Positions 11,705 to 58,916 of a stretch of 64,000 bases of DNA are shown here, in pieces (position 1 is the first letter of the stretch; each line of letters opens with the position of its first letter). The stretch is from an uncultured bacterium (lineage in GTDB: Bacteria > Planctomycetota > UBA1135 > GCA-002686595). The DNA lies in NCBI GenBank assembly GCA_943787795.1, contig CALSNU010000001.1:320001-384000 (forward strand), read 5' to 3'. Below the pieces are notes generated by a model that was not told the DNA's origin, made no database searches, and worked only from the letters and a program-made list of their open reading frames with translations. Position numbers and translations under genes: made by a program.

Positions 11705-13633
11705 CTACTGGAAGAGCAGCGAGCTCGCGTTCGTGAAGTTGAGTCCGCCGGACTGCGGCAGGTCTCGGTGCGCGAACTGCGCGTACCAGGTGGTGCCGGG
11801 CAAGACCCCTCCGCCGGCGATAGGCAGCTGCGCGATATCGATGAGCTCGACGGCGGCGCCGTCGGCGCTCGTGGTCTGAATCCCAAGCCGGATCAGGTTG
11901 CCGCTGAGGCAGAGGACGCCGCCGCCGAGCGGCGTCATCTGGGAGGCGTCTGCGAGAACGAAGAGGCCAGCGGAGCTGGGAGGGAGGCGCCGTGCGTGCA
12001 GCTCAAGGTCGTCCTCGCTCACCCGGGTCGACCCGAGGGCGAAGAGCTCACCGGCGCTCCCGGTTGAGTTCGAGAGGGAGCCGCAGCTGAACGCCTCCCG
12101 CGACACGAGGTCGATCGAGTCGATCCATCCGGCGCCGTTCGGGATTCCGACCCCGAACGCCGCGGCGTGGTCTGGGTGGACGGCGACGCCGTCGCACCAG
12201 GGGAACCACCCGGGCAGGCCGGAGTCGACCTCGAGGCGTGCTTGGAGGGTCCTCACGTCCACGACGAGGTATCGATTCGACGACGCGACGACGGCGTAGG
12301 CACCGTCCGGAGTCAGGTCGACGTCCACGGGCCAGCCCTCGATCTGGTCCGTGAAGATCGGCGTCGGGGCCGGCCCCGCGGTGAGGTCATAGAGCCGCAG
12401 ACGCGTGGTCTCGCCGGACGGCGCGATCACCGCGGCGAGCTCATTGGTGCAGACCACCGAGTCGAGCCCGGCGTAGATCCCGGAGTGTGTGGCCGGGAAC
12501 GGGCGAGAGTTCGTGATCGAGAGCCCGCCGCCGCCTGTCGGGAGGTTCCCGAGGTTGAACTCGTAGATCCTCCGGCCGGTCTGGACGAGCAGCGTCTCAC
12601 CGTCCGGCGTCACCGTCAGGTCGCGCGGCGAACCGGTCAGCAGGGCGAACCAGTTCGTCCCACCGTGGTCTTGAACGTTGAGGTACCCGCCAGCGGTGCT
12701 CGGGCCGCCCAGGGTGATCGTCGCCCATACGCTGTCCGTCATGACCACCGTGTCGAAGGCCGTCTCGAGGTACGGCCCGGTCGGGCCAGGGAAGCTCGTG
12801 ACGCGCCGGACGATCTGGGTGTTCGTTCCATCAAGTCGGATGAGCGCGACCTCGTCCTCGGCGCGGACCGTCGCGTACTGACCGTCCGGTGAGACGGCGA
12901 CGTCCATCGGGCGACCGGCGAGCTGGTCGAGCGGGAGGGTGTCCAGCACGACGCGTGGTCCGCCGCCGGCGGGCGGGACCAGCTCGACCACGAGGACCGA
13001 CGTGTCGCCACTGTTGGGGTCGATGGAGAGGGAGACCCCGTGGTCCGCAGTGACGGCGACCATGTCGTTCCCAAGCTCGGCGTTGATGCCCGGCGGCTCC
13101 GAAGGTTCGTTCAGCAGGATCGCGCCGCCCGCCAGGTCAATCACGAACGTCCCGCTCGCTCCTGTTCCGCCGAAACGCGAGCCGCCTCGGACGACGGCGA
13201 GCCTCCCGTCGGGCGTCAGTTCGACGTCACGGGGCCGGAACCCGCAGTCGATCTCGGTGATCAGCGTGGGAGGCGTCGTGGTCAGGTCGATCAGCTGAGC
13301 CTGCGAGCCGAGCGTCAGCGCCCGCACGTTGGAGACGGCGACGGCGTCGTTCGCCGGGCCCGAGCCGCCCACCAGTAGCGACGCGGGGGTGGAGTAGACG
13401 AGCTGCCCCGTCTCGAGCTCGACGATGAAGGTCACCGTGGCGCTGGCGGTGGTCCGACCGATCGCATAGCGGCCGTCCGGTGTGATCTCAACGTCGTCGA
13501 CCCCGAGGTTCGAGCGGTCCGCGAAGGAGGTGAACTGTGCCAACGCCGGCGTCGATAGCAGGGCTCCGACCGGGAGCGCGAACGCGACCCCGAGCGGGCG
13601 GAGGGTCCTGGGGAGCAGCTCGGAGAGCCTCAT
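11705..13633 (-). CDS. Secreted beta-propeller (YncE-like) protein with conserved C-terminal domain
   Basis: Signal peptide ending ALA-Q; repeated D-V-x-L/I/V-T/S-P-D-G blades; C-terminal domain shared with three other proteins in the window. Confidence 0.8.
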   Translation of the reverse strand: MRLSELLPRTLRPLGVAFALPVGALLSTPALAQFTSFADRSNLGVDDVEITPDGRYAIGRTTASATVTFIVELETGQLVYSTPASLLVGGSGPANDAVAVSNVRALTLGSQAQLIDLTTTPPTLITEIDCGFRPRDVELTPDGRLAVVRGGSRFGGTGASGTFVIDLAGGAILLNEPSEPPGINAELGNDMVAVTADHGVSLSIDPNSGDTSVLVVELVPPAGGGPRVVLDTLPLDQLAGRPMDVAVSPDGQYATVRAEDEVALIRLDGTNTQIVRRVTSFPGPTGPYLETAFDTVVMTDSVWATITLGGPSTAGGYLNVQDHGGTNWFALLTGSPRDLTVTPDGETLLVQTGRRIYEFNLGNLPTGGGGLSITNSRPFPATHSGIYAGLDSVVCTNELAAVIAPSGETTRLRLYDLTAGPAPTPIFTDQIEGWPVDVDLTPDGAYAVVASSNRYLVVDVRTLQARLEVDSGLPGWFPWCDGVAVHPDHAAAFGVGIPNGAGWIDSIDLVSREAFSCGSLSNSTGSAGELFALGSTRVSEDDLELHARRLPPSSAGLFVLADASQMTPLGGGVLCLSGNLIRLGIQTTSADGAAVELIDIAQLPIAGGGVLPGTTWYAQFAHRDLPQSGGLNFTNASSLLFQ

Positions 13634-13988
13634 GGGCAGGCCGATGGGCTGGGGACGGCGGTGCGAGCGGAGGGGGTTGGTCATGACGGTCTCATGCGGG
13701 TGTGGCGGGAAACAGCCGGGCTCGGTGATAGCCGGTGCCGTCTCCTGGGTCACTCTGTCACGTGAACTCTTGGCGGGGAGGCTGGTGCGGACGACGGATC
13801 ACGGATGCTGACGGGAAGGCGGCGTCTGGCCGTGGGCAACCTCGCGGCCATCGCGTCGCCGGATGTCCGGGCCGCGTCCGCCCAGAGGCGAGGCGTCGGA
13901 GGGCGCAGCGGCGGGCGCGTAGGCGGCGAGTCTGGGTCATGGGATCGACCGGCTGCACCGTATCGCTCGCTCCGGCCGACCGACCCTC

Positions 13989-16125: not shown

Positions 16126-17619
16126 ATGGCTGGGTTGAGGGAGCGGCCCATCCACTCCGCCGAGCCCGTCCACTCCGCTGAGCCCATCCACTCCGCTGAG
16201 CCCATCCACTCCGCTGAGCCCGTCCACTCCGCTGAGCCCATCCACTCCGCCAAGAATGAGGATCGGATCGGCAAGTTCCGCCTCGTCCGTGAGATCGGCC
16301 GCGGCGCCATGGGCGTGGTCTACGAGGCCTTCCAGGACGACCTTCAGCGCTGCGTCGCCCTGAAGGTGATCGCGCCAGGGGTGCTCGACGCGAGGCCCAA
16401 CGCTCAGGAGGCGTTCGAGACCGAGGCGAGGCTGGCCGCCAGCGTTCGCCACCCGGGGGTGGTCTCGGTCCACGAGGTCGGCTTCGCCGATGGCCGCGCG
16501 TACCTGGCGATGGAGTTCGTGGAGGGCGATTCGCTCGGCGCAGCATCGGCGCCGATGCACCCGAGGGAGCTGGCGCGGGTCACGCTCGAGATCGCGCGCG
16601 CCGTGTCGGCTCTGCATGAGGGCGGCATCGTGCACCGCGACCTGAAGCCCGATAACGTCCTCATGGACCGCGACGGGCGGGCGCGCGTGACGGACTTCGG
16701 GCTGGCGTTCCTGCATGGCGAGAGCGGCGTCGAGGTCGCGGGCACACCGGGGTTCATGGCGCCTGAGCAGCTGCGTGCCGGGTTTGGCCCCGTCGGAGAA
16801 GGCAGCGACGTCTACGCGCTGGGCGCGGTGATGCACTCGCTGATGACCGGGCAGCACCCCAACGCCGCGAAGCGGGTGATCGATGTTGTGATCGCCACGG
16901 TTGAGCGCGACCTCCCGGTCGTTCTCCCAGCGGCTGGTGTCCCGGCCGAGCTGTCGGCCATCTGTCGGCGATGTCTCGAGCGTCGCGTGGAGGACCGCTA
17001 TGCCAGTGCGGCGGCGGTCGCCGATGACCTGGAGAGATGGTTGCGAGGAGACGCGCCCGAGGCGACGCCGCCGGGGCGACTGCGACAGGCGCAGTCGTTC
17101 TTCCGTCGCCGGCGGATGCTGGCCGGGCGGGTGCTCGCCCTGTTCGCCTTCGGAATGCTGTCGCTCCTGAACTACGCGATCCTCGGGGTGATGGAGGCGG
17201 GCTACTTCTTCCGCGTCATCGCCGTGCTCGGGTTGCTCGTGATGGCCTCCGTGCTGCTGGACTGGATGAATCGTCGCGGCTCGTTCTTGCGTCAAACGCC
17301 CTACGTCTGGCCGCTGCTCGATTGCGTCGGGTTGACCTGGGTCCTGCATGTCGGGGACGGCCTCGACTCGTCGCTGATCGTCCTGTATCCGATGTTGATC
17401 GTCATGACGGGCTCCTGGCTCGACCGCTCGGTGGTGTTCGTGACCATGGCCCTGGCCATGCTCGCTTACGCCTCGGGGATCGCCCTGGGCACGAGCGAGG
17501 TGGCTGGCATCGAGCAGCACCTCGCTGTCATGACAACGCTCCTTGTGACCGCGTTACTGATGGGCATGCAAGTCGAGCGCACTCGTGCGCTGCGCGAGTA
17601 CGCGTCGAGCCGCTGGTAG
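16126..17619 (+). CDS. Membrane Ser/Thr protein kinase (Hanks type) with N-terminal hexapeptide repeats and multi-TM C-terminus
   Basis: IGRGAMGVV, VALKVI, HRDLKPDN, DFG, GTPGFMAPEQ, DVYALG; about 6 C-terminal hydrophobic helices. Start may be further upstream (16042). Confidence 0.9.
   Translation: MAGLRERPIHSAEPVHSAEPIHSAEPIHSAEPVHSAEPIHSAKNEDRIGKFRLVREIGRGAMGVVYEAFQDDLQRCVALKVIAPGVLDARPNAQEAFETEARLAASVRHPGVVSVHEVGFADGRAYLAMEFVEGDSLGAASAPMHPRELARVTLEIARAVSALHEGGIVHRDLKPDNVLMDRDGRARVTDFGLAFLHGESGVEVAGTPGFMAPEQLRAGFGPVGEGSDVYALGAVMHSLMTGQHPNAAKRVIDVVIATVERDLPVVLPAAGVPAELSAICRRCLERRVEDRYASAAAVADDLERWLRGDAPEATPPGRLRQAQSFFRRRRMLAGRVLALFAFGMLSLLNYAILGVMEAGYFFRVIAVLGLLVMASVLLDWMNRRGSFLRQTPYVWPLLDCVGLTWVLHVGDGLDSSLIVLYPMLIVMTGSWLDRSVVFVTMALAMLAYASGIALGTSEVAGIEQHLAVMTTLLVTALLMGMQVERTRALREYASSRW
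16147..16254 (+). repeat. 18-bp coding tandem repeat x6 (P[IV]HSAE)
   Basis: ccc[ag]tccactccgc[ct]gag repeated six times, the last ending aag. Confidence 0.95.
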
Positions 17620-36702: not shown

Positions 36703-36828
36703 GGCTCATCCGGGGACAACTGTGTCCAGGGCCTTTCGGCATGGCCCTGTGGGAATGGCCGCAGGAAATTCTCTGCGAATCTCGGTCACGGTTGTGCGGC
36801 TTCCCGCCTGACATGCCATATTCGTCCA

Positions 36829-36990
36829 AGGTCAGGAGCAATCTTGATCGTTCTTTGACTCCGCATGGGACGAGCGTTGGCAGGCGCGACTCCCCAGCTT
36901 GGCAGGGCTGAACAGCGACCCGCAGGGTCGTGCGGAACGATGAACAGGCAGTGTTGGTGGGGGTCGTCACTCTTCGTGACGTCCCCCTCC
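36829..36990 (+). ncRNA. Candidate structured small RNA
   Basis: Hairpins GGTCAGGA-GCAA-TCTTGATC (GNRA loop), GCGACCC-GCA-GGGTCGT and terminal GGGGGTCGTCAC-TCTTC-GTGACGTCCCCC; upstream TGCCATATT resembles an extended -10. Confidence 0.35.
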
Positions 36991-37016
36991 TCTTCACCCC
37001 TTGCCAGGCACGGGGT

Positions 37017-37069
37017 CTCTGCAAGGGAGCGGGGAGGCTCTGCAAGGGAGCGGGGAGGCTCTGCAAGGG
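37017..37069. repeat. 21-bp tandem repeat x2.5 (CTCTGCAAGGGAGCGGGGAGG)
   Basis: Read directly. Confidence 0.85.
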
Positions 37070-37214
37070 CGCGGGCCGTCCCGAACCCAGAGGTCTCCGC
37101 GGCCAGCTTGGATTGAGGGCGGGGTGGCCTCGCGGGGCCCCATCTCCACAGGGACTCAGGGATCCTGCGGGTCAAGCGCTCGTGATCCCGGGCCGACGAC
37201 CTACCCTCCGGGGC

Positions 37215-40181: not shown

Positions 40182-42062
40182 ATGCTCGCGCTCCTCTCGG
40201 CTCCCACCCTCCTCGGGTTCCCCGCCTTCCTGGGACTCCCCGCTCCTTTCGAGGCCGGGCACCCAGCGGCGAGCCCAGCAGCCTGCGCTTCGCAGGACGG
40301 GACCTCGATCCGGGCGGTGGTGACGTCTCCGGGGGGAGGCGCCGGCCTCGCGGCGAGCCTCAGGGCCGCCGGACTGGAGGTGCTGGGACGGTCGCCGCTG
40401 GATCGCGGAGGGGTGGAGGTCATCGTGACCCCCACGGAGCGTCGCTGGCTCGGGCTGCGCGGGCTCGATCTCGAGGTGCTGGAAGTGGGCCGCCCCTTTG
40501 CGGAGGTCATGGCCGAGCGGGCGGCGGCTGACGGAGTCCCCTCCGGCTACCTCGACTATCCCGCCGTCGTGGCAGAGCTCGCGGCCCTGGCGGCGAGTCA
40601 ACCTCAGCTCGCCGAGCTGGTGGACATCACGGCGCGCTATGGAACTCCTGCCACGGAAGAGGGGCGCCACCTCTACGCGCTGAAGATCTCGGACAACGTG
40701 GCGTCGGATGAGGATGAGCCCGCGTTCCTCCTCGTCTCGGCCCACCACGCCCGCGAGCTCGTCACCCCGGTCATCGCCCTTGACGCTGCAGCCAGGCTCC
40801 TCAGTGGCTATGGCACCGACCCCGAGGTGCGCGACGCGGTGGACGGCCATGAGATCTGGATCGCTCCGGTCTGGAATCCAGACGGCTACCAGCACGTCTT
40901 CACGGCGGACAACCTCTGGCGGAAGAACCGCCGACCCTTCTCCAGCGGGACGGGGGTCGACCTCAACCGCAACTATCCCGCGGGCTGGGCGTCGGGTTGC
41001 TCGGGCAGCACGAGTCCAGGGTCGGGCACCTTCAAGGGCCCCGCCGCGGCGTCGGAGGCCGAGACAGCGACGATGCTGGCGTGGACCGCAGACCGGCGCT
41101 TCGCGAAGGTGCTCGACCTCCACTCCCGGGGGAGGGAGACGCTCTGGGGATACGCCTGTCCGTCCTCGCCGGTGGACAGCCTGTGGCGATCCAAGGCGAT
41201 CGAACTGAGCCAGGCGGCGGGCTACGGCGCCACCGAGCGGCCTCCCAGCGCGGACGGTGAGCACTTCCAATGGCAGTTCGCGGCGCACGGCGCCATGTCG
41301 CTCCTGACAGAGACCCATGACCAGTTCCAGCCGTCGTACGCCTCGGCGGTCGCCGAGGCCGCGGCGGTCTGGGGCGGAGTGCTCTGGTTCCTCGGCGAGC
41401 CGCTGCCGCTCACGGGGCAGATCACAGACGCCTGCTCGGGCCATCCCCTGGAGGCGACCCTCACGGTTCAGGGGCTCGGATTCACCGAGGGCGAGGTGAT
41501 CCGCTCCTCGGCCGCGGCAGGCCGCTTCCACGGCTTCCTGCCGAGTGGGACTCACTCGTGCCTTGTCGAGGCGCCGGGCTTTCTCCCGGCCACCGTCTCG
41601 GTCCAGGTCCCCTCGATGGGGGGGGCGACGCTGGACGTTCAGTTGGACCCGGTGGGCGGGGGAGCTGTGAACTTCTGTCCGGCCACCCCGAACAGCCTCG
41701 GGCAGGTCCCGCTGCACTATCTCTCGGGGAGCGCCAGCGTCGGGCAGAATCAGTTCACGCTGTTCGTCGAGCGGCTCCCCGGGCTCCAGCCCCTGGTCTT
41801 CATGGCGGGGCAGAGCTTCATCCAGGCACCCTGCTTCAATGGTGTCCTGTGTCTCGGGCGCCCGAGCTATCCCCTCTCCCTTGGCGTTGCCGACATCTTC
41901 GGTACCGCCTCGGTGGTGGTGGACCTCTCCGCGCCGATCCACGCTCAGGTGATGTTCCTCGCGGGCTCCACATGGGGCTTCCAGGTCGCGTACCGCGACC
42001 CTCAGGCCGGCGGTGTTGGGCTCAACCTCAGCCCTGCGCTGCAGGTCCAGATCTGCCCCTGA
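40182..42062 (+). CDS. M14 zinc carboxypeptidase with conserved C-terminal domain
   Basis: HARE zinc motif, NPDG, WRKNR, GVDLNRNY, DLHS; carboxypeptidase-regulatory-like domain; shared C-terminal domain. Confidence 0.92.
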   Translation: MLALLSAPTLLGFPAFLGLPAPFEAGHPAASPAACASQDGTSIRAVVTSPGGGAGLAASLRAAGLEVLGRSPLDRGGVEVIVTPTERRWLGLRGLDLEVLEVGRPFAEVMAERAAADGVPSGYLDYPAVVAELAALAASQPQLAELVDITARYGTPATEEGRHLYALKISDNVASDEDEPAFLLVSAHHARELVTPVIALDAAARLLSGYGTDPEVRDAVDGHEIWIAPVWNPDGYQHVFTADNLWRKNRRPFSSGTGVDLNRNYPAGWASGCSGSTSPGSGTFKGPAAASEAETATMLAWTADRRFAKVLDLHSRGRETLWGYACPSSPVDSLWRSKAIELSQAAGYGATERPPSADGEHFQWQFAAHGAMSLLTETHDQFQPSYASAVAEAAAVWGGVLWFLGEPLPLTGQITDACSGHPLEATLTVQGLGFTEGEVIRSSAAAGRFHGFLPSGTHSCLVEAPGFLPATVSVQVPSMGGATLDVQLDPVGGGAVNFCPATPNSLGQVPLHYLSGSASVGQNQFTLFVERLPGLQPLVFMAGQSFIQAPCFNGVLCLGRPSYPLSLGVADIFGTASVVVDLSAPIHAQVMFLAGSTWGFQVAYRDPQAGGVGLNLSPALQVQICP

Positions 42063-42496: not shown

Positions 42497-44809
42497 ATGA
42501 CTTTCCGAATCCTCTTGTCTACGGCCACGGCCATGGCTCTTGTCGCCAGCGCCGGAGCGCAGGTGAATCAGTACGTCGGGCCCTCGGCGAATGCACCGTC
42601 GGGCAACCTCGACTTCGACACCCCCCCCGTTCCGTCCGGGCCGATCTCTGGCACCGACCCTGCGTTCACGAGCGCAGGCGTCACCTCAGTGACACAGATC
42701 GGTCTCGGGTGGGTTGCCGCTGGCGACACCACGTCCCCGGGCATCTCGAACAACGCTCTCCAGGGGCTCCTGTCCCAGAACGGCGTCATGTCGGTCGGCG
42801 GTGACACCGCCGGCACGCCCCTCGACAACCCCGGCGCCGGCGACGGCTGGGAGATCACGCTCGCCGCTCCGGTGCTGGAGTTCCAGTGCATCTTCACCGA
42901 CCAGGTGAACATGAACTACGACGTGGAGCTCCTCTCCGGCGGAGCCTCGATCGGCTTCGGGTCGTTCAACTACTCCGGTGGCTTCCCGAACCCGCCGCAC
43001 TTCTGGCGGGGCACCGGGGCCTTTGACACGATCCGCATCACCTTCCCCGGTGGGTCGGGCGGTGTCGGTATCGACGAGTGGTCCTGGAACAGCGGACCCG
43101 GCCCGCAGCCGCCGGCCAACGACGACTGCGCGAACGCGACGCCTGCAGCGGTGGGCTCGAACGCTTTCAACAACCTGTTCGCGACCGCGAGCACGGCCGG
43201 CTCGAGCTGCGGTGCTGATGCCGCGGACGTGTGGTTCTCCTTCACGGTTCCGAGCGCGGGCAACTACCGCTTCGAGACCTGCGGGTCCACGCTCGACACG
43301 GTCCTCGAGGTCTACTCGGGTGCCTGTGGATCGGCGACGTCGCTCGGCTGCAATGATGACGGCTGTGGCGCGCAGAGCCAGCTCGACCTCGTCGGACTGA
43401 GCGCCGGTGACAACCTCCTTATTCAGCTCGGCGGCTTCAACAACGCTCAGGGCGCGGGTTCCCTCGACATTTCGACATTCTCGGCCCTCGGGAACGATGA
43501 CTGCGGCGGGGCCACCCCGGTGGCCTTCGGCGGCAATCTGATCGACAACAACTTCGCGACGACGAGTGCCACGCTCTCCGGCTGTGGCGCCGACCAGTCC
43601 GACGTCTGGTACTCCTTCACGGTCGCGACGGCCGGGGACTACCGGTTCGAGACCTGCGGTTCGCTGTTTGACACCGTCATCGAGGTCTACACCGGGACCT
43701 GCGGCGCGCTTGTCTCCCAGGGGTGCAACGATGACGTCTGCGGCACGGGTAGCCGTGTGGACGTGCTCGGTTTGAACGCTGGCGAGGTCGTCCTTCTGCA
43801 GGTCGGCGGATTCGGTGGAGCCCAGGGCACGGGTACGCTCACGATCGGCAACCCGCCGCCCCCGCCCCCCGCCAACTGCGCGACGACGCTCTTCGCGTCG
43901 AACAACGGTGGTGCGATCGGCGGCGCCGTGTACTTCGACATGACGCTGACCCAGGCCTCGTCCTTCGCCGGCCTGCTCACCAACACGAGCGCGGCCTCCG
44001 GAACGCCGATTGGTGTGTCCGTCTACACCTGTGTCGGCTCCTCCGCGGGCCAGGAGACGAACCCCGGGGCCTGGACCCTGGTGGCAGAGGATGACGGTTC
44101 GCCGATCAGCTTGGGGGATGACGTCGAGACCCCGGTGACCTTCGTGGCACCGTTCTCGCTTCCCGCGGGCCTCACGGGCATCGCTGTCGTGGGTGACAAC
44201 TTCACCACCGGCCTTCAGATGGACCACGACTACACCAACGGCAACGGCGCGAACCAGAACTTCGTGAGCGCCGATGGCGTGGTGACCCTGGACCTCGGGA
44301 CGGCGTCGAACGTGCCGTTCACTGGCGGGGTCTTCAGTCCCCGGGTGTGGAACGGGCAGTTCTGCCACGGTGGCGCTGTGGCGCCGGGCTCGAACTACTG
44401 CACGGCGAACGTCAACTCGACGGGCGTCGCGGGATCCATGGGCGCGTCGGGCTCCAACATCGTGGGCAACAACGACCTCGTGCTGGAGGCGAACGACCTC
44501 CCGGTGAGCTCGTTCGGCTTCTTCCTGACCTCGATGACCCAGGGCTTCGTTGCGAACCCCGGGGGCAGCCAGGGCAACCTCTGCCTCGGCGGCGCCATCG
44601 GGCGCTACGTCGGGCCGGGCCAGATTCAGAACTCCGGTTCTGCTGGCTCGATCGTCCTCGCCATCGACAACACCCAGGTGCCGCAGCCCACGGGCCTCGT
44701 GGCCGTCGTCACGGGTGAGACCTGGAACTTCCAGGCCTGGCACCGGGACGCCGTCATGGGCTCGGCGACGAGCAACTTCACCGACGGGTACGAGATCACC
44801 TTCCAGTGA
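42497..44809 (+). CDS. Secreted Cys/Asp-rich surface protein with two tandem NDDC repeat domains and conserved C-terminal domain
   Basis: Signal peptide ending SAGA-Q; two ~125-aa repeats NDDC...DVW[FY]SFTV...YRFETCGS..DTV.EVY.G.CG...GCNDD.CG; C-terminal domain ending EITFQ. Confidence 0.88.
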   Translation: MTFRILLSTATAMALVASAGAQVNQYVGPSANAPSGNLDFDTPPVPSGPISGTDPAFTSAGVTSVTQIGLGWVAAGDTTSPGISNNALQGLLSQNGVMSVGGDTAGTPLDNPGAGDGWEITLAAPVLEFQCIFTDQVNMNYDVELLSGGASIGFGSFNYSGGFPNPPHFWRGTGAFDTIRITFPGGSGGVGIDEWSWNSGPGPQPPANDDCANATPAAVGSNAFNNLFATASTAGSSCGADAADVWFSFTVPSAGNYRFETCGSTLDTVLEVYSGACGSATSLGCNDDGCGAQSQLDLVGLSAGDNLLIQLGGFNNAQGAGSLDISTFSALGNDDCGGATPVAFGGNLIDNNFATTSATLSGCGADQSDVWYSFTVATAGDYRFETCGSLFDTVIEVYTGTCGALVSQGCNDDVCGTGSRVDVLGLNAGEVVLLQVGGFGGAQGTGTLTIGNPPPPPPANCATTLFASNNGGAIGGAVYFDMTLTQASSFAGLLTNTSAASGTPIGVSVYTCVGSSAGQETNPGAWTLVAEDDGSPISLGDDVETPVTFVAPFSLPAGLTGIAVVGDNFTTGLQMDHDYTNGNGANQNFVSADGVVTLDLGTASNVPFTGGVFSPRVWNGQFCHGGAVAPGSNYCTANVNSTGVAGSMGASGSNIVGNNDLVLEANDLPVSSFGFFLTSMTQGFVANPGGSQGNLCLGGAIGRYVGPGQIQNSGSAGSIVLAIDNTQVPQPTGLVAVVTGETWNFQAWHRDAVMGSATSNFTDGYEITFQ

Positions 44810-47118: not shown

Positions 47119-47259
47119 TCCAACCGAGCACCCGTCGGCCTGATGGCCAACGGCAAGGCCTCCACATTCAGGACCTTTCCCTTTCGGGGCGAGGTCCTGA
47201 AGCATAGTAGGCTGTACTGCGGACTCGCCACGATCGGACTTGCTGCCACACCCGCTCCG

Positions 47260-48069
47260 TTGAAGCCCCCCTCCAAGATCGCCGCCCTCTTCGGTGAGGA
47301 TCACGGAACAGTCGACGCGTTCGGCCTGACCCTCGTCGGGGGCCCGCTATCAGGCGACTCCCCGACGGCGTGTGCGATCAGCGCCGGCGGGGTCGGGATG
47401 CTGAGGAGAAAGGGAGCCTCCGCCGTGCTCAATGAGGACTGCGCGTTCGCCTTCGACGATGGGCGACGGGTGATCCACGCGATCGCCGATGGGCATCACG
47501 GGCATGAGGCCAGTCATCGGACGGTGGAGTTGCTGGCTGCCATGGTGGAAGGCTCGAAGGGGCTCATCACGCCCGAGGAGGCCCTCGCTCAGCTGCATGC
47601 GCTCTGGCTGGAGGCGGGCGGAGAGGCGGAGGCCGAGGGGGATGGGTCCCGTTGCACGTTGGCGATTCTCTCCATCGACCGTGGAGAGGGCGTCTTGGAG
47701 GGCGTCTGCCTCGGCGACTCAGGCATCTTCGTGGGCAACATGGAGGTCGGGATCCGTCGCGTGGTTCCACCGAATACCTTCTACATGGCCCCGTGGGATC
47801 GGGGGTCCCACGGCATTCCGCCAAGCACTCACTTCAAGGTCCCCGTCCGGAGCGGGGACTGGGTCCTGACCTGCTCGGATGGGATCCACGAGTGCAGGTA
47901 CGAGACGCCGGACGAGTCCATCGGGGCAGAGGAGCTCGAGTCGCTCATGATTCGTGCCGGGCGGAGCCCCGAGGCCCTCGTGGAGTCTGCGGTGATGCTG
48001 GCGCTCGCCGGCGTTCGCGGCCATCAGGGCGGCGAAGACAACCTGGCGCTGGTGGCCTCCATCGCCTGA
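47260..48069 (+). CDS. PP2C/PPM-family protein phosphatase
   Basis: NEDC, IADGHHG, LGDSG, CSDGI, GGEDN motifs; start uncertain (ORF open from 47143). Confidence 0.8.
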   Translation: MKPPSKIAALFGEDHGTVDAFGLTLVGGPLSGDSPTACAISAGGVGMLRRKGASAVLNEDCAFAFDDGRRVIHAIADGHHGHEASHRTVELLAAMVEGSKGLITPEEALAQLHALWLEAGGEAEAEGDGSRCTLAILSIDRGEGVLEGVCLGDSGIFVGNMEVGIRRVVPPNTFYMAPWDRGSHGIPPSTHFKVPVRSGDWVLTCSDGIHECRYETPDESIGAEELESLMIRAGRSPEALVESAVMLALAGVRGHQGGEDNLALVASIA

Positions 48070-48304
48070 TCGCCTCTGCTACTACGGCTCGGACGCGGGC
48101 GGGGACCGTGCCCACCTTCGATACGCTCCGACGAGCGGCGCGGGCGTCCACGGCGAGCGGCGCCCGGAGCTCCACAGCATGTTAGCTTTGAATCTGCCAC
48201 CGGGGATCTCATCCGCGCCCTTGAGTCCCGACCCGAAACACTGATGCCAGTTTGGCCACCGAAGGCCAACGCTCGACGCGCGTGCGACCGCACGACCCAC
48301 TGCC

Positions 48305-50761: not shown

Positions 50762-50837
50762 TCTCTCCCCGAGCGATGTGTTCCCGCTGACACGCCTCCC
50801 CCTCCGCTGAACCACCCGCAGCTGCCTCCTGCCAATC

Positions 50838-52343
50838 ATGTCGCTCTTCCTTGCCCTCCCGGTCTTCGCCTTCATCGCGGCGCTCCTGTTGACGCCGGTG
50901 ACGAGTCTGGTCGCGCGTCGGTACGGCTGGGTCGATCATCCGGGGTTGAGGAAAATCCACCATGAACCGGTGGCGTACCTCGGTGGAGCCGCGGTCATGG
51001 GGGGCTTTCTCTTGACGCTGGCCGCAGCGCCCTGGCTACCGGGCCTCGACCGTCTCGAGATCACGGTGGACCGTCAGCTGCTCGCGATCCTCCTCGGTGG
51101 CCTGATCATGTTCGCGGTCGGCCTGCGGGACGACATCCAGCGCCTCGGCGCTTTGACGAAGCTCGCGGCTCAGTTGGCGGCAGCGGGCCTCGTGCTCCTC
51201 AGCGGCGTCTCCATCGACGGGATCTGGCTCACCGAGTCGACGCGTCTGGACTTCGGGGTGTTCGGCATGGCGCTGACGGTGGTCTGGATCGTGGGGGCCA
51301 CCAACGCCATCAACATTATCGATGGGCTGGACAGCCTCTCGAGCGGCCTTAGCGTCCTCGCCTGCGCCGCCATCTCGTGGGTCGCCTTCCAGCAGGGGCA
51401 GGTCGCGGCCGGGCTCATGACCGTGGCCCTGATGGGGGCAATTGGCGGGTTCATGCCCCACAACCTCCATCCCGCCCGGGTCTTCCTTGGAGACGCCGGG
51501 AGCCTCTCCATCGGGTTTGTCTTGTCGGCAACAGCGGCGCTCGTTGCCTCCAGGGCGACGAGCCTTACGGGCTTCTCCGTCCCGCTCGTGGCACTCGGGA
51601 TTCCGATCATGGATACGAGCTTTGCCATGTCCCGGCGCTTCATCGAAGGGCGCTCGATGATGTCGGCTGACCGCAATCACATTCACCACCGGCTGATCAA
51701 GATCGGGCACGGGCAGCGCAGGGCGGTGGCGACCATCTGCGGCACCTCCCTCCTCGCGATCTCCGTCGTTGTCCTATGTCCGCTCCTTGGGCCCGAGCTG
51801 GAACTGGCTTCGCTCGCGGTCTCCCTCCTGATCCTGGGAGTCTTGTTCAGTAAGGCTGGGGCAATCAGGATCAAGGAGTCGCTGGAGGCGTTCCGCCAGG
51901 TCGCGTCGTCGGCGAGGTCCGTCAATGACGAGAAGCAGGCTCTGGACGAGCTGGCGCTCGCCTTCAAGGAGACGAAGTCTCTCGAGGAGTGGTGGGGCGT
52001 GGTGACCGCGGCGGCTGACGTGCTCGGCTTCGCAGAGCTGGCCATGGAGGGGGAGCGCCGCGACGGAAGTCCTTTCGCGCTCCTCTGGGAGCGGGAGGGC
52101 GAGGACATCGAGTCTGCCCCTCAGGGATTTGTGACGAGGATCCAGATCCCGGTCAATGATCGACGCGAAGGGTCTTGTCTGGTTCTCAAGGCTGCGGTCT
52201 CCCATGACTCGGAGACGGCGACGCTGGGTCGAAGGCTCGCGCTCTTCCACCCCTTCCTCTCGTTCAATGGGCTGGAGCGTCTGCCAGAACCAGAGGGCCC
52301 GGCCAGGTCCGCGGGTCCTGCTCCGAGCTTGGCGAGCCGCTAG
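50838..52343 (+). CDS. WecA/MraY-type (glycosyltransferase family 4) undecaprenyl-phosphate sugar-1-P transferase with C-terminal extension
   Basis: DHPGLRKIH, GLRDD, NAINIIDGLD, VFLGDAGS, ADRNHIHHRL. Confidence 0.9.
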   Translation: MSLFLALPVFAFIAALLLTPVTSLVARRYGWVDHPGLRKIHHEPVAYLGGAAVMGGFLLTLAAAPWLPGLDRLEITVDRQLLAILLGGLIMFAVGLRDDIQRLGALTKLAAQLAAAGLVLLSGVSIDGIWLTESTRLDFGVFGMALTVVWIVGATNAINIIDGLDSLSSGLSVLACAAISWVAFQQGQVAAGLMTVALMGAIGGFMPHNLHPARVFLGDAGSLSIGFVLSATAALVASRATSLTGFSVPLVALGIPIMDTSFAMSRRFIEGRSMMSADRNHIHHRLIKIGHGQRRAVATICGTSLLAISVVVLCPLLGPELELASLAVSLLILGVLFSKAGAIRIKESLEAFRQVASSARSVNDEKQALDELALAFKETKSLEEWWGVVTAAADVLGFAELAMEGERRDGSPFALLWEREGEDIESAPQGFVTRIQIPVNDRREGSCLVLKAAVSHDSETATLGRRLALFHPFLSFNGLERLPEPEGPARSAGPAPSLASR

Positions 52344-52880
52344 GCTTGGTTTAGAGGGGCGGTCCGAAGAATGGTGCGGCTCGAAGTGGGGTGTTTGGGT
52401 CAAGCTGATGGAAGGCGAGATCGGCGTCTGGGGAGTGGTACACCCCCGGAGGCGCGAGCCTGCGCCCCGACGGGGGCGCTCTCATTTCGCTGGCGCCGGC
52501 GAATGAAGAGTCACGGCCCTGGCGGGCACGATGCTCCGACCCCAGAGCAGCCATCGGCTGCGCTGCCTTCCATGTGGACCGTTCCATGCGGGCTCAGAAG
52601 GTCTGGAATGCAGCTGCAGCACTCGTCCTCGAGCTCCATGTTTCGTTCAGCAGTCCCGAAGGGGCTCCGTCGGCCTTCGAGGTCGGGCCGGATGGGGATG
52701 GACCAGGATTCTGAACGCCTTTGGGTGACCATCGGCGGCGGCAGCGCGGACGCCGCATTCCTAGGACGCTTCGTTGCGGCAAGCGAACGGAGCAGACCAA
52801 CCGTCCTCACACCTGACCGTCGATGCGGGCCCCTTCCAATGGCCCGAGTCGAGACCCAGGACGCTCGACCAGGATGGCGG

Positions 52881-53957
52881 TCAGCGGTTGTTGACCCCAG
52901 GCGTGAAGAAGTAACCGATCTGGAGCGTGAAGACCTCTGACGCGAACTTCCGCGTCCAGGTCCCTGCGGTGTGGCCGAGCGAGATCACATCACCGGGCTT
53001 GATGGGGATCGTGATCGCGGTGCGAAGCGCTTCGCCCTTGATCTCGAACGTCGAGGCCAGGATCTCGCCAGTCTCATAATCCTTGCGGAAGATCGTCGCG
53101 TAGGGAGGGGCGGCTACGGGGTCAGGCCCGCCGGCCACCGCGATGGCTTCCAGGAGGTTCAGTTCCTGTTCGGGGGGTATTGGGAAGGCGCCCTGGCCTG
53201 CGACAAGGCCGAGCACGGTGAAGCTGAACGGCTCCCAGCGCTCCACCTCGATACGCTCGCCGCCTTCCAGGGGCATGTCATAGAAAGGGACGTTGAGGCC
53301 TCGGACGGGGAGGCCGACCACCTCCGGCCCGTCGCCTCGGCCTGGACGGTAGACGGTAATTCGCCGGGCGCCGCCGCCTTCGCCCACCAAGATGCCGCCT
53401 GCCGCAGAGAGCGCCGCGGAGAGCGTCAGCTCGTCGCTTCGCAGCCGATGGACGCCCGCGCTACCCACCGCCCCGTATATCGTGATCGAGCTCAGGGTCG
53501 CCTCCTGGACAGAGACCACGATGGACGGGCGTTCGCTCAGGAGCTCGGGGTAGACCTTGTCGGCGATCCGGGCCTCGACCTCCTGGACGGAGAGCCCGGC
53601 GACTTGGGTGGTCCCGGCGAGAGGGACCTCGATGGAGCCTTCCTTCGAGACGCGGGCGAAGTGCTCGAGGCTGGTCTGCGGCAGACCCTCCACGACAGAG
53701 GTGGCCATGGACGGCGGCACCCGGATTACCAGCAGGTCGCCGGGGACCACCGTGTAGACACCCGGGGGCTGAATGGAGTCAATGAGTCTCTGCTCGTCGA
53801 ATTCCGGCTGGATCGGGCCCGCCGCGTTGAACCGCGCGAGGCCCTCGGCGTCGGGGTGGTAGCGGGGTGCACTACACGACGCACCGGCGAGTGCCGTGAC
53901 GATGGCGAGGCATATCGGGATCGATCGACGGTTGCTGGAGCGGGGCAGGGTGCTCAT
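52881..53957 (-). CDS. Polysaccharide export lipoprotein (Wza/SLBB domains)
   Basis: Lipobox GASC; YTVVPGDLL, GSIEVPLAG, GAVGSAGVH, LSAALSAAGG, LLEAIAVAGG, IKPGDVI. Confidence 0.88.
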   Translation of the reverse strand: MSTLPRSSNRRSIPICLAIVTALAGASCSAPRYHPDAEGLARFNAAGPIQPEFDEQRLIDSIQPPGVYTVVPGDLLVIRVPPSMATSVVEGLPQTSLEHFARVSKEGSIEVPLAGTTQVAGLSVQEVEARIADKVYPELLSERPSIVVSVQEATLSSITIYGAVGSAGVHRLRSDELTLSAALSAAGGILVGEGGGARRITVYRPGRGDGPEVVGLPVRGLNVPFYDMPLEGGERIEVERWEPFSFTVLGLVAGQGAFPIPPEQELNLLEAIAVAGGPDPVAAPPYATIFRKDYETGEILASTFEIKGEALRTAITIPIKPGDVISLGHTAGTWTRKFASEVFTLQIGYFFTPGVNNR

Positions 53958-54027
53958 GGGTTCACTCTATCGATTGAAGGCGCGGGCTACAGAGCTGTAA
54001 TTCAGGACGGGCGGGGCAGCTCTCCGC

Positions 54028-56526
54028 TCATCTCGCCCCGTCGGACTCGAGTTGCTCGAGGAGGCGGCTTGCGGCGGTCATCCCGGGGTGGAAGTTGAGG
54101 AGGTCCTTGAGCTCTCGCCGGGCGCCACGGGGGTCTCCCATCTGGACGAGGAGCCTCGCGTAGCTGAGCCGAGTCTTGGACGAGGGATCCAGGCCCAGGA
54201 CCCGGCGGAGCAGCGCGGCAGCCTCCTCGAGGTTGTCGCGAGACGCCTCGATAGCGGCGAGGCGCTGCAGGTCGCTGGCGGCAGCGCTCGGGCGGGCGCA
54301 GGCGGCGACGAGGAGCTCCTCGTAGGCTTCCTGCAGCCGCACTTTGAGCTCGCCGCGCGCCTCGTCGCCTTCGACCACGGCGAGCAGGCGGTCGGTGAGG
54401 ACCAGGTTGCCCTCGACGAATGGGAGGGCCAGCTCGGGCCGGTCCAGGCTGACGGCGAGCAGGTCCACGGCGGAGCTCGCGCCAGCTCCGATGCTCACGG
54501 CCCGTTCGATCTCGGCGACGCCCTCGGCTTCACGGTTCTTCCGCATGAGCTCGAAGGCCGACGCGAGGCACGTCTTGGGATGGTGGGGGGCCAGCTCGCG
54601 CCCACGGATGATCCACTCACCGGCCTCGTCGCTCTGATCGTCCAGCCAGACGCGGCGCAGCTGGCCTGCGACGGACCACGAGGGTCCATGGGTCGGAGCG
54701 ACGAGGAGAAGCTCCTTGAGCTCCTCGAGCATGATGCGTGCCTTTCCGGCCAGTGCCGGGTGGTCGAGGGGATTCACCGGCGGCCCCTCGGGGTCGAAGC
54801 TGCCGGCCTCAGCGACGGCTTGGTTCCAGCCCGCGAGGGCGGATTGGAACCGGTACTCAGCGTTGCCGGGCTCGCCCTCGACCGCGAGTGCGGCGTGTAG
54901 CACGAGGTCTGCGTGCTGCTCGGCGGTGCCAATCCCGCCGCTCTGTTCCATCTCATGCCGGAGCCGCTCCGTGTACGAGAAGTGGTCCCATGCGCTGGTC
55001 TCCCGGGCTGCTCCCGGGACACTCGCCGCGAGGCACACGAGGGCCACGGCGGCCGATCCCAGAGCGTAAAGTCGCCGCGGCAGGCTGGCCGAGGCGCTCT
55101 GCCCAGAGCAGGCCAGGGCAGCGCCAGCGAGCGTCGCGGCAGTGAGGCCGACCGCCGGGATCAAGAGGCCGAAGTCGGTCAACGAATGGAACCCCAACGC
55201 GGAGAGCCCGAACAAGACCCCGAAGACCCCCAGCGCGCTCCGGTTGGACCGGGCTCCCCGAAGGATCGCCAGGGTGAGCAGGCCGAGGAAGGCGAAGCCG
55301 AGCAGGGCACCGGTCAGACCCATCTCGGCGAAGAGTTCGGCGTAGATATTCTCGGCGTGCTCTGCGGTGCCTCGGCGGACGGCTGAATCGAACCCAGGGA
55401 AGGCCAGCGCGAAGGCCCCGAGCCCCGCCCCGGTTGCAGCGAAGGCTGCGCCCATGCTCGCAGAGTCGCGGATCAGCTCGAGTCGAGTGGTCATGTTGCT
55501 CCCCTCGTCAGCGTTCACGGCCTCGAACTTCTCGATGACCGGGTCGACCCCGAGGAACAGAAGCATGGCCGTGGCGGCGAGGCCGGCGGCGGCCATGGAC
55601 CAGCCCACGCCGTCGATCCTCCTGGAGTACTGCATGACCCCCGCTGTGACCGAGGCCGCGAAGACCATGGACATGAGGCCGTTGCGGGACGTCGACAGGA
55701 CGATGGCGACGGTGCCCAGCACGAGGAACAGTCGCAGGGTCTTCTCGCTCCTCGACGCGCGGCGCCCTGGGCCCCCGGTGAGGTCCCGGACGTCCACGGG
55801 GCGGCCCCGTGCGCGCCCGCCAGCTTCGATGAGCAGACACCCGAGGGCGCACCCCAATGCGAGGTTCAAGAACTCGGCGTAGTGGCTGTATGAGGCGAAG
55901 GGCGCGCTCAGGGTCGCGAAGCCTCCGCCGTCGAAGACTCCGTAGATGAGGGGCTCTCCCAGCGCGAAGTGCCCGAGGCCTACGAGGGTCACGACGGATC
56001 CGATCAAGGAGACACCCAGGATGAGCCTCCTGAAGGCCGCGGGATGGCGATAGATCGTCGAGGACACCAGCAGGAGCAGCGCGCCCATGATCAAGAGGTC
56101 CACGCGGATTCCCGTCCCGTTGGGGTAGACGCTCAGCGTCATGGAAGCCGGTTCGGTGCCCGCGGCCTTGTTGGCCTCCGCCCAGGCCTGGCCCGCCGCC
56201 GGGGAGACTTGTTGGACCAGTGCAGCAGGGAGCTCGATGATCTGGGCCAGGGCGAGGGCGACCAGCCCGAAGAAGGGCAGCAACGCCCGAGGCGTACAGA
56301 CCGCCTGGTCGGTCTCGGAGAGGCAGCGAACGGCGAAGCAGGCGCCGATCAGGGCTCCCATGCAGCCCATGACGACCCGGCTCATCGGCATGACACCGCC
56401 GAAGGCGAGCGGCAGGTAGAGGAGCAGGCCGAGGATCAGCGCCTCGATGACCTGGTCGATCCTCGGCGCCGGTGCGGGCTTGCTGCCACGGCGCTGGGCG
56501 GTTGCGTGGTCAGGACGCGGTGTCAT
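54028..56526 (-). CDS. O-antigen ligase / Wzy_C family membrane protein with C-terminal TPR
   Basis: LSTSRNGL, GAGLGAF, HAENIYAELFAEMG, HSLTDF; TPR-like tail. Confidence 0.88.
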   Translation of the reverse strand: MTPRPDHATAQRRGSKPAPAPRIDQVIEALILGLLLYLPLAFGGVMPMSRVVMGCMGALIGACFAVRCLSETDQAVCTPRALLPFFGLVALALAQIIELPAALVQQVSPAAGQAWAEANKAAGTEPASMTLSVYPNGTGIRVDLLIMGALLLLVSSTIYRHPAAFRRLILGVSLIGSVVTLVGLGHFALGEPLIYGVFDGGGFATLSAPFASYSHYAEFLNLALGCALGCLLIEAGGRARGRPVDVRDLTGGPGRRASRSEKTLRLFLVLGTVAIVLSTSRNGLMSMVFAASVTAGVMQYSRRIDGVGWSMAAAGLAATAMLLFLGVDPVIEKFEAVNADEGSNMTTRLELIRDSASMGAAFAATGAGLGAFALAFPGFDSAVRRGTAEHAENIYAELFAEMGLTGALLGFAFLGLLTLAILRGARSNRSALGVFGVLFGLSALGFHSLTDFGLLIPAVGLTAATLAGAALACSGQSASASLPRRLYALGSAAVALVCLAASVPGAARETSAWDHFSYTERLRHEMEQSGGIGTAEQHADLVLHAALAVEGEPGNAEYRFQSALAGWNQAVAEAGSFDPEGPPVNPLDHPALAGKARIMLEELKELLLVAPTHGPSWSVAGQLRRVWLDDQSDEAGEWIIRGRELAPHHPKTCLASAFELMRKNREAEGVAEIERAVSIGAGASSAVDLLAVSLDRPELALPFVEGNLVLTDRLLAVVEGDEARGELKVRLQEAYEELLVAACARPSAAASDLQRLAAIEASRDNLEEAAALLRRVLGLDPSSKTRLSYARLLVQMGDPRGARRELKDLLNFHPGMTAASRLLEQLESDGAR

Positions 56527-56769
56527 GGGAGCAGTGGGGAGGCCGGGGTGCGGTGCAGATCACGGGCGCGACGGACTTGAGGCTGGTAGAGCGCAGGTCC
56601 AGCGCAGGGCGCGCGCCCTGCGGTTGGAGTCGATCGGGAGCACACCCCGTCGCCTGTCTATCGGCTCTCGAAGGTTCCGCGCGTGAATCCTATCCGCGTT
56701 CCAGAGGGGGACGATACGGCACCTGGCGCTTCAGCAGAGAGGGGTTCAACTCGCAAGGAAGTCCGATTA

Positions 56770-56812
56770 GGAAGGAGCGCGCCTCCGGCCATGCCGGGGG
56801 CGCGCTCCTTCC
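56770..56812. terminator. 20-bp inverted-repeat hairpin downstream of the 56853-58916 gene
   Basis: GGAAGGAGCGCGCCTCCGGC-CAT-GCCGGGGGCGCGCTCCTTCC with one non-Watson-Crick position; no clear U-tract. Confidence 0.65.
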
Positions 56813-56852
56813 GGTCGCTCTGGCTCACGGGTGAGCCGAACCGGGACTCAAC

Positions 56853-58916
56853 TCACTGGAACGTCACCGACAGGGCGTCGGAGAAGTTGCTGGTACTGCC
56901 GACGTCCCGGAACCAGTACTGGAAGTTGTAGGAGTCACCGGGGAGCACGGCGATGAAGCCCGTCGGCTGCGGCCACATGTTGAGGTCCGTGGGGACAGAC
57001 ACCGTGGTGCCCGAGCCCGTGTTGACCACGTTGGCGATGAACCGGCCTACCGGGCCGCCGCCGATGCAGAGGTTTCCGACCGAGGCGCCCACGTTGGGGA
57101 CGAAGACCGACCCCTGTGAGACGAAGAAGTAACCGCTCGAGTTGTTGGGCAGGCACTCCGCGTTGAGCATGAAGGCGTTGTCCACGACCAGGTCGCTGCC
57201 GGTGCCGAACATGTGGGCGCCGAAGCCAGACGAGTTGAGCACGGCCGAGCAGAAGTTCGATCCGACCTCAGTCGATGCGCCGATGTCGTAGTCCAGCACG
57301 TAGTCGGCGCAGCTCTCGCCGGGCTGGAATGCGAAGGTGGCGACCTTGAGCACGTACGTCTGAGGCTGCCCCGACTTGTTCGTGTAGGTGATGGTCTCGA
57401 CCGCACCGACGGAGAACGAACCGGTGATGAAGCCGGCGTTGGAGTCACAGTTTGCGTCGTCCGTGAACAGGAGCAGGTCGAGGTCCGCCTGGGAGGGGTC
57501 GAGCAGCATCGAGACGTTGATGGTCTCGCCGGGGATCAGGCTGAGCCGGAAGTAGTCCGCCGGCACGAGGCAGTTGACGACCAGATTGATCGTCTGACCC
57601 GTGGATAGCGGGAACGCCGTGGCGCAGGAGACGTTGCCAGCCAGGGGGTCGTCCGGGCACGGCGCGGCAACGGACAACTCGAGGTCGTAGTCACTGCAGT
57701 CGCCAGCGCTTCCCGCGAAGACCGTGACCTCAAGCTTCACCGGGAGCGGGGCTGAGCCGCAGTTCGTGTAGGAGACGGTCTCGTTGTCGGTGACGGAGAA
57801 GCCGAAGTCGTAGGCACCCGTGCAGTCATCGTTGAAGAGGATGATGTCTACGTCGGCCTGGGCCTGGGAGAACAGCGCGTTCGCGGTGAGCGTCATCCCT
57901 GCGGGGATATCGAACGAGTAGTAGTCCGGGTCCGTCTTGGTGACCACGAGTCCAGAGTTGAAGCTCGGAACAGCAAGGGGCGCCGCGGAGTTGCAGTCGT
58001 CGTTGTCCTCGAACACATCGTCGAGGCGGGCCAGGCAGCCTGAGCAATCAAAGCCAAGGTCGGCGCCGAGGACGAGCCAGAAGGAACCGAACGCGGGGTT
58101 GTTCGTGGCCGGGTCATACCCGCCTTCGTTGAAGCACTCGGTGCTCCCGGTGCCCAGGGTGAGCTCGAACCACTGGTCCAGCGTGCCGAGTCCGGAGCCG
58201 ACGCTGCCGGGGTTCTGGAAGACCGTGCCGTCCCCAGTGGGCGCGAGAGGACCGGGACGCGCGCCGATCAGCGGGCCCATCATCGAGCCGGGGTCGGCGG
58301 ACATCAGCAGCCCGAATCCGAACCGATCCACGTCGCCGTCGTCGTACTTGCCGTCCCCGTCTGCAAGCATGCAGAACTCGAAGCCGGTCATGTCGATGTC
58401 GAAGGTGTACGGCGTGATCTGCCCGGGGGTGATCGTTCCAGGGAGTCCGGAGATCGTCAGGTCTAGCAGCGGAGCGGAGCTCCCGAGCGGGTTGGTGCAC
58501 GAGTCGTACTGGGCGAGGATCGTGAGCCTCGCGTTACCGTCACCGATCGAGTCGGTGGCGTAGCCCAGCTGGATGTCGTCGATGCGGTAGCTGTCGGCCG
58601 TTCCCGTGACGCTCACCGGGCTCGAGGAGACCGGGGACGTCGTACTCGGGATCCGGCCCTCGTCGACCACGAGGCTCGAGCCGTTGATGTCGAGGAACAC
58701 CGCACCGTAGTGGTTGTTCGTGTAGACGTCGCCACCGGCACCCATGGCCGACTGTTGAGTCGGATCCGCGGGGATGAACTGTCCCGAGGCCGCGTGGAAT
58801 GTTCCCGCGTGGATCGGAGCCCTGGCAGGAATCCGGTGGAGTTGGGCAGTGGATTGACCGGGCGCGCCCTGGGCGAGGGCGACCGCTCCGATCAGGAGGG
58901 ATGCAGTCTTGAGCAT
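56853..58916 (-). CDS. Secreted protein with two PPC-like domains and conserved C-terminal domain
   Basis: Signal MLKTASLLIGAVALAQG; repeats DD...N..C..A.PL ... DY[YF] ... AD[VL]D..LF ... S....ET..YTN; C-terminal domain ending SVTFQ. Confidence 0.85.
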   Translation of the reverse strand: MLKTASLLIGAVALAQGAPGQSTAQLHRIPARAPIHAGTFHAASGQFIPADPTQQSAMGAGGDVYTNNHYGAVFLDINGSSLVVDEGRIPSTTSPVSSSPVSVTGTADSYRIDDIQLGYATDSIGDGNARLTILAQYDSCTNPLGSSAPLLDLTISGLPGTITPGQITPYTFDIDMTGFEFCMLADGDGKYDDGDVDRFGFGLLMSADPGSMMGPLIGARPGPLAPTGDGTVFQNPGSVGSGLGTLDQWFELTLGTGSTECFNEGGYDPATNNPAFGSFWLVLGADLGFDCSGCLARLDDVFEDNDDCNSAAPLAVPSFNSGLVVTKTDPDYYSFDIPAGMTLTANALFSQAQADVDIILFNDDCTGAYDFGFSVTDNETVSYTNCGSAPLPVKLEVTVFAGSAGDCSDYDLELSVAAPCPDDPLAGNVSCATAFPLSTGQTINLVVNCLVPADYFRLSLIPGETINVSMLLDPSQADLDLLLFTDDANCDSNAGFITGSFSVGAVETITYTNKSGQPQTYVLKVATFAFQPGESCADYVLDYDIGASTEVGSNFCSAVLNSSGFGAHMFGTGSDLVVDNAFMLNAECLPNNSSGYFFVSQGSVFVPNVGASVGNLCIGGGPVGRFIANVVNTGSGTTVSVPTDLNMWPQPTGFIAVLPGDSYNFQYWFRDVGSTSNFSDALSVTFQ

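Follow-up and report, generated by a model that had tools for sequence, protein, structure and literature searches.

The window considered here is a stretch of 64,000 nucleotides (positions 320,001 to 384,000 of contig CALSNU010000001.1, assembly GCA_943787795.1) from an uncultured planctomycete of the GTDB lineage UBA1135, GCA-002686595, and four of its genes encode proteins with unrelated bodies that all end in the same domain. The first gene (11705..13684, minus strand; start at 13684 or 13633) encodes an exported protein with a probable beta-propeller body, whose signal peptide ends in A-x-A and is followed by Gln; alignment and profile place its terminal domain at 11705..12103 (minus strand). 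The second (40182..42062, plus strand) encodes an M14 zinc carboxypeptidase with a hydrophobic N terminus, in which Pfam recognizes M14 at about 40572-41174 and CarboxypepD_reg at about 41409-41645; its terminal domain (41655..42062, plus strand) ends in CP and has extra cysteines. The third (42497..44809, plus strand) encodes an exported protein with a signal peptide followed by Gln and two GBD_T9SS_assoc (PF23759) domains, and its terminal domain lies at 44378..44809 (plus strand). The fourth (56853..58916, minus strand) encodes an exported protein with PPC-like domains and an internal repeat of ∼123 residues, and its terminal domain was placed at 56853..57272 (minus strand), again by alignment and profile. 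A first-pass annotation made from the sequence alone had named the bodies as beta-propeller, M14 carboxypeptidase, NDDC-repeat protein, and PPC-like protein. Pfam bore out the carboxypeptidase. The repeats of the third protein are present, and their identity is that of the two GBD_T9SS_assoc stretches. The PPC match fell slightly below the Pfam cutoff, and the propeller drew a weak NCBIfam match (TIGR03866, E 0.003).

In pairwise BLASTP comparisons of the four proteins, each pair gave a single significant alignment, which covered the last 126 to 145 residues at 29 to 38% identity (E 2e-5 to 1e-28). Body-to-body comparison returned nothing better than E 0.5, and the alignment of one pair (P0003/P0004) extended ∼60 residues further upstream than the tail. 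The open reading frames (ORFs) end where first proposed, and the tail, originally put at ∼130 residues, measures 135 to 143 and is the only part that the four proteins have in common. All of the motifs listed for it are present (C-x4-N-S-x-G, G-S, L-P, G-x-L-C-[LI], G-x-[TS]-[WY]-x-[FA]-Q-x3-R-D, and N-[FL]-[ST]); three of the four proteins end in FQ-stop and the carboxypeptidase in CP-stop. Pfam named domains in three of the bodies, the PPC one below threshold, and assigned no family to any of the four tails, and NCBIfam gave no significant match to the four proteins.

An iterated profile of the domain converged on 104 ORFs in the source genome of the window (G000; 4.71 Mb, 85% complete). The reversed-ORF control gave one match, at E 0.1; thus, the family is not a product of chance. 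In 102 of the 104 ORFs the domain ends within 2 residues of the stop codon; the other two are a domain directly behind a signal peptide and a fragment. Our own gene calling yielded 3481 genes, of which 105 (∼3%) carry the domain, and the full-length copies share 14 to 89% pairwise identity (median, 39%). A distant carrier genome chosen for comparison (G321; 86% complete, 2.31 Mb compared) has 35 matching genes, 31 with C-terminal and 4 with N-terminal copies, the latter again behind the signal peptide, compared with 1 of 105 in the source genome. Among the matches listed for these two genomes, the domain occurs once per protein and is never internal. The strictly C-terminal placement suggested at first therefore describes most copies and gives way to placement at either end, and scattered internal copies were not seen. 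The only intact N-terminal copy of the source genome (C6:243720-244541) combines a signal peptide, the domain, and a single CxxCH cytochrome-c-like domain; a library match (P0078) has an N-terminal copy in a similar architecture. Several copies in the source genome are fragments that lack an ATG start or are split between frames (C1:288822-289328, C6:155450-155905, C3:534787-535047, C4:699687-699998, C6:187156-187542, and C1:676649-677374) and represent pseudogenes or assembly indels.

The tagged proteins, as we call those carrying the domain, have the features of exported proteins. To recognize signal peptides we relied on inspection and on a lenient heuristic of our own, which missed that of the propeller protein; with this heuristic, 86 of 100 tagged proteins have a signal-peptide-like start, compared with 33 to 35% of other genes in the source genome. 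Several of the tagged proteins without one have no start codon either and seem to be fragments. A later hydrophobic helix was seen in 1 of the 86, a Tat motif in none, and the last 10 residues hold a mean of 0.3 Lys/Arg, so that the tail is not basic. Among 83 signal-peptide, nonmembrane proteins of extracellular-type composition, by thresholds chosen after the data had been seen, 60 carry the domain, and the 23 that do not are mostly lipoproteins, porins, and pilins. The cargo named by Pfam includes lectin-like, FG-GAP, PPC, propeller, and peptidase domains, although most of the 110 proteins scanned match few families; CxxCH cargo accounts for 5 of 105 tagged proteins in the source genome and 6 of 35 in the distant one. 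In 49 of the 86, the residue immediately after the predicted cleavage point of the signal peptide is Gln (background, about 9 to 11%), which recalls the pyroglutamate Q-rule of Bacteroidota. Because Gln at this position is also frequent in untagged proteins of the distant genome, we set it aside as part of the signal.

The four window copies are of one form, type A. Of 100 copies in the source genome, 88 have both cysteines in their columns, and in most of the others the cysteines are shifted; the last hairpin of type A conserves Trp, Gln, Arg, Asp, and Asn. A divergent form, type B, is likewise C-terminal and usually lacks the cysteine pair, so that the two conserved cysteines noted at first hold for type A and not for the wider family. 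Profile comparison shows the two types to be homologous (98.9%, E 1.5e-17); the residues nearly invariant across both are limited to a few Gly and one Gln, located in the penultimate strand. Searched against 42 genomes from the source genome's family, the type A profile reaches saturation in 34, gives 1 to 6 matches in six, and gives none in two; the weak matches in this family and elsewhere in the order are type B. Five family members poor in type A have 35 to 136 type B matches, and in the source genome itself five or more type B tails accompany ∼100 of type A. Further tails that appear by eye to be the same domain are missed by the profiles (G000:C4:661665-663524 and C3:48985-50502 in the source genome; L232:230-4689, L282:15509-18052, and L283:530-2353 elsewhere). 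These are possibly a type C, and all counts given here are therefore lower bounds.

The range was sampled within Planctomycetota. An apparent confinement to one family (18/18 versus 0/12) was an artifact of having searched with one query, and the type B profile refuted it. Over 301 genomes, that profile gives a bimodal distribution: 60 genomes contain 7 or more of 14 scored candidates, 4 have 1 or 2, and 237 have none. In a tree of 30 genomes built from RpoB alone, one branch with moderate support (96 in a quick search; 83/86 in a careful search) sets the 16 carriers apart from the rest, and five noncarrier genomes near them have 0 or 1 copies by a broader profile. The lineage restriction proposed in the first-pass annotation therefore stands for a clade within the phylum. 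Two genomes outside this clade have single type B copies (L347 in G414 and L348 in G331), possibly transfers without the system. The clusters nearest to the domain in the ESM Atlas are from Planctomycetota. Records titled as other phyla include three with 2 to 7 copies and one with 150 or more; these may reflect misbinning, mistitling, or transfer. The chromosome of the cultured Saltatorellus ferox Poly30 has copies 67 to 68% identical and at least 150 matches, and the source organism of the window is likely a member of the Saltatorellus group. In a library search, type A retrieved 20,594 clusters (50% identity) at E ≤ 0.001, and of the best 150 matches, 149 end within 3 residues of the C terminus.

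No known family accounts for the domain in the resources searched. Pfam matched none of 63 type A members, and neither Pfam nor NCBIfam matched any of 54 type B members; newer Pfam annotation of cargo homologs also has no model for the tail. A sequence search of the PDB with both types gave no significant match (best E 0.02, antibody light chains), and the 30 near clusters in the ESM Atlas have no common Pfam family. The CHRD clusters of the ESM Atlas score 0.80 to 0.83 and are probably CHRD proteins bearing the tail. AlphaFold2 models of type A (the copy of the third window protein; pLDDT 97.7) and type B (pLDDT 95.8) are almost all-beta and predict an immunoglobulin (Ig)/FN3-like beta-sandwich, in line with the terminal beta-sandwich, independent of cargo, that had been proposed for these exported proteins; the cysteine pair of type A probably forms a disulfide. 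With these models, Foldseek found no match at E ≤ 0.001, and a wide structural search found generic Ig/FN3 neighbors (best Z 8.1, root mean square deviation [RMSD] 2.7, 90 aligned; Z 8.5, RMSD 2.5, 86 aligned). Ester-bond adhesins were weak fold matches (E 0.013), and a CBM56 match (Z 7.2) lies within the generic range. Full-text literature searches, whose coverage excluded supplements and most subscription papers, found no description of the domain. The protein-family section of PMC11032199 counts clade-specific families and does not name this domain among them, and a term search of 10.1101/817700 found none of "C-terminal," "secretion," and "signal peptide." The terminal domain is thus a real and very large family, uncatalogued in the resources searched.

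The same cargo may carry other terminal modules in its place. We compared the 120 best homologs of the window carboxypeptidase body (49 to 100% identity, the first five being the protein itself and near copies). This domain forms the tail of 32 of them, FlgD_ig of 30, and a Pfam dockerin of 5; 43 have other tails and 10 are short. A second comparison used a locus syntenic between distant genomes (G000:C2:198398-211017 and L240:7461-18844), which encodes a TonB-dependent receptor, ExbB/ExbD/TonB, a tetratricopeptide repeat (TPR) lipoprotein, and an adjoining tagged cargo protein with a PF28492 body. Among 120 homologs of this cargo, 78 end in this domain and 24 in a dockerin, which Pfam recognizes in 10 and a motif in the other 14; the remaining 18 have different tails. 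No M14 homolog has two of the three modules, and no homolog of the TonB-locus cargo has both this domain and a dockerin.

Tails also differ between genomes on equivalent proteins. At the TonB locus the receptors are 48% and the cargo proteins 59% identical, with a type A tail in one genome and a type B tail in the other. Seven of the 35 tagged bodies of the distant genome have a homolog in the source genome, and all seven match tagged proteins. In four of these ortholog pairs, the partner's tail is no closer than that of a random paralog (rank 22 to 102 of 105), and the tail tree splits by genome with 2 changes. We infer that tails have often been replaced by the host genome's version, and such frequent replacement suggests one shared partner. 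The domain is, in sum, a terminal, single-copy, exchangeable module on proteins with signal-peptide-like starts throughout the clade.

This behavior resembles that of several known tags. The C-terminal domains (CTDs) of type IX secretion systems (T9SS; type A, TIGR04183/PF18962) and FlgD_ig (PF13860) are likewise terminal Ig-like sandwiches independent of cargo on signal-peptide proteins. They share cargo families with the domain (M14, Peptidase_C25, and GBD_T9SS_assoc) and join M14 homologs at the same junction; FlgD_ig tails may serve as T9SS-type signals outside Bacteroidota, a point that our literature search did not confirm. However, the domain has no sequence match to TIGR04183, TIGR04131, PF18962, or PF13860, is longer (125 to 145 residues versus about 70 to 90), lacks the terminal lysine motif, and is sometimes N-terminal. 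A structural match to the PorU chain (Z 7.8, RMSD 2.7, 99 aligned, range 949-1156) is tied with many unrelated Ig domains. Type I dockerins (PF00404) of other planctomycetes are also single-copy terminal modules on peptidases and other exported proteins and occupy the same slot, but a dockerin is a 60-residue Ca-binding helix-loop pair, whereas the domain is a ∼140-residue all-beta fold without a Pfam match. A "planctosome" has been proposed for the dockerin tails of planctomycetes (PMC6461901). PEP-CTERM (exosortase), GlyGly-CTERM (rhombosortase), and MYXO-CTERM similarly place a C-terminal tag on many unrelated cargo proteins; the sortase-type tags combine a motif with a membrane helix and a basic tail, and the domain has neither the helix nor the basic tail. 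The domain works like T9SS tails and dockerins, yet it belongs to neither, and the earlier view that it is not a T9SS CTD, PEP-CTERM, or dockerin agrees with these searches.

The machinery of known systems was sought in carrier genomes. SprA was not found in any of 32 carrier genomes (85 to 97% complete), in a search in which no control genome gave a match either; PorV was not found in any of five, where the control gave a match. Peptidase_C25 (PorU-type) occurs in one of the five, whose three such proteins carry the domain as cargo. Carrier genomes have 0 or 1 dockerin each, and exosortase is present in three of the five and not in the source genome. The source genome has a compact gspDEFGHIJ-type operon of a type II secretion system (T2SS) at C3:436321-444281, syntenic in the distant genome, and an ortholog of the T2SS secretin was found in all 32 carrier genomes (E ≤ 3e-79), nearly full length in most. 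Separate from this operon is a conserved three-gene unit (G000:C1:1038032-1041863 and L252:11354-14357) that encodes a small exported protein, a short secretin, and a GspK-like protein; this third secretin (C1:1038711) lacks most N-domains and is inseparable by score from the other secretins. Comparison of the source genome with the 2.31 Mb of the distant one yielded 1015 reciprocal best hits, from which we scanned 182 envelope-type proteins with Pfam (104 drawn from 126 exported-type pairs, and a further 78 that are membrane or large proteins). Among the 182 were BamA, an LptD-like protein, DsbD, secretins, TonB systems, and ∼25 unannotated proteins. A third set of 195 pairs was partly covered, mostly by eye.

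That the domain has some envelope-targeting role is very likely. As the specific role, we propose, with a probability of roughly 0.45, a shared terminal docking module that holds ∼100 exported proteins noncovalently on one cell-surface receptor after export by the T2SS. A Sec signal peptide would bring the cargo to the periplasm, where it would fold, acquire heme c in some cases, and probably have its type A cysteines oxidized. The folded cargo would then cross the outer membrane, most plausibly through the T2SS, and the uncleaved domain would hold it at the surface, as dockerins do in other planctomycetes. The T2SS is preferred because it is the only known route for folded proteins that turned up in our searches of the source genome. 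Docking is favored over a strictly C-terminal export signal by the N-terminal copies, by the lack of a membrane segment or basic tail, and by the failure to find SprA or PorV; the N-terminal copies, together with the exchange with dockerins within the phylum and the lack of T9SS parts, make docking after T2SS export our first choice.

Several observations weigh against this proposal. In three of the seven ortholog pairs, all of them di-heme CxxCH proteins, the cargo kept its type B tail, and type B occurs beside type A in the source genome; a single receptor would therefore need to be tolerant. Cohesin (PF00963), the partner of dockerins, was found in none of five carrier genomes while the controls matched; nor was a repeat scaffold common to the two genomes found. 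The 182 shared envelope proteins include no translocon, sortase, scaffold, or receptor recognizable by Pfam as specific to the clade, in a comparison of two incomplete genomes in which BLAST may miss diverged parts. The T2SS secretin is also matched in 19 of 24 genomes with 0 to 2 copies of the domain, in 6 of them at similar scores, and thus does not profile with it. The predicted folds are generic, and an export signal would account just as well for the ∼99% C-terminal placement in the source genome and for the conservation of the last strand.

Such an export signal could be read by the T2SS itself, any retention at the cell being a separate matter. We consider this unlikely, though it is the strongest of the alternatives. 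The secretin is found in every carrier genome tested, the cargo is folded and may bear heme, and lipoproteins, which have routes of their own, are mostly untagged. The T2SS is, however, phylum-wide and the domain is not, the slot is filled in other planctomycetes by dockerins, which are binding modules, and T2SS substrates are not known to have a signal domain in common. There is precedent for tagged cargo on this route, in that C-terminally tagged GlyGly-CTERM and MYXO-CTERM proteins need the T2SS (10.1101/2023.06.07.544157).

Less probable still is a signal for a dedicated, undescribed outer membrane translocon of T9SS-like type, perhaps with cleavage and reanchoring. The domain replaces FlgD/T9SS-type tails on M14 proteins and, as type B, ends three Peptidase_C25 proteins in G076; its predicted Ig-like fold resembles that of T9SS CTDs, its clade boundary is sharp, and T9SS CTDs likewise show species-specific incompatibility (PMC11285876). 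N-terminal copies are difficult to reconcile with such a signal, and no candidate barrel or protease appeared among the reciprocal best hits of the two incomplete genomes, although diverged barrels may escape BLAST. Slightly lower again we rank binding of a glycan (lipopolysaccharide, capsule, or peptidoglycan) or self-assembly as a coat, which would involve no protein receptor and could take place in the periplasm. That no protein partner was found fits this alternative, as do the residues conserved in the last hairpin of type A, which are typical of sugar binding, and the occasional N-terminal copies, given that S-layer homology-type anchors typically lie at either end; across both types, however, only the Gln and a few Gly are conserved, and no carbohydrate-binding module was prominent in the fold searches. 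A generic stabilizing or spacer Ig domain spread by shuffling, with no targeting role, would suit the generic fold but is very improbable for a module that is single-copy, confined to the ends, exclusive of other terminal modules, and present in genome-specific versions, since such Ig domains are usually repeated and internal.

The surroundings of the four genes are given for completeness, with several names read from the sequence. Two more tagged genes lie immediately upstream of the window. At its left edge (1-5017), the start of an exported CotH-kinase-like gene (G000:C1:316455-320055) overlaps the first 55 bases; its ortholog in the distant genome matches Pfam CotH, and beside it are another gene of this kind (1595-3379) and one VTC-like and one DUF4956-like gene. 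Peptide-level tandem repeats occur as HSAEP-type units at ∼16126-16310, where the ORF at 16126 begins, and as short repeats at ∼36700-37100, with 7-residue repeats near 36930-37066. A cluster at 47143-56526 resembles exopolysaccharide export genes and comprises Wzc-like (48305-50761), glycosyl-phosphate transferase-like (50838-52343), and O-antigen-ligase/TPR-like (54028-56526) genes; the fourth tagged gene lies directly upstream of the last of these on the same strand.

Because neither T9SS nor dockerin systems were found in the carriers, the partner of the domain is expected to be a sorting or anchoring component of a new kind, and there is a fair chance that it defines a new system. The wider proposition, in which an undescribed secretion or surface-display system defining a deep Planctomycetota clade uses the domain as its signal, either through a dedicated translocon or receptor without catalogued parts or as the first modular T2SS address domain, we regard as tentative and somewhat doubtful. 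As Saltatorellus ferox Poly30 is in culture and has at least 150 copies, the question is directly testable. The domain marks the probable surface proteome of the whole clade, in which it fills the role of T9SS tails and dockerins where neither system was found, and one profile would annotate at least 3% of carrier genes. If the undescribed system exists, each cell would use it to sort between one hundred and several hundred proteins, and it would also shape the envelope, which is unusual in these shape-shifting bacteria.

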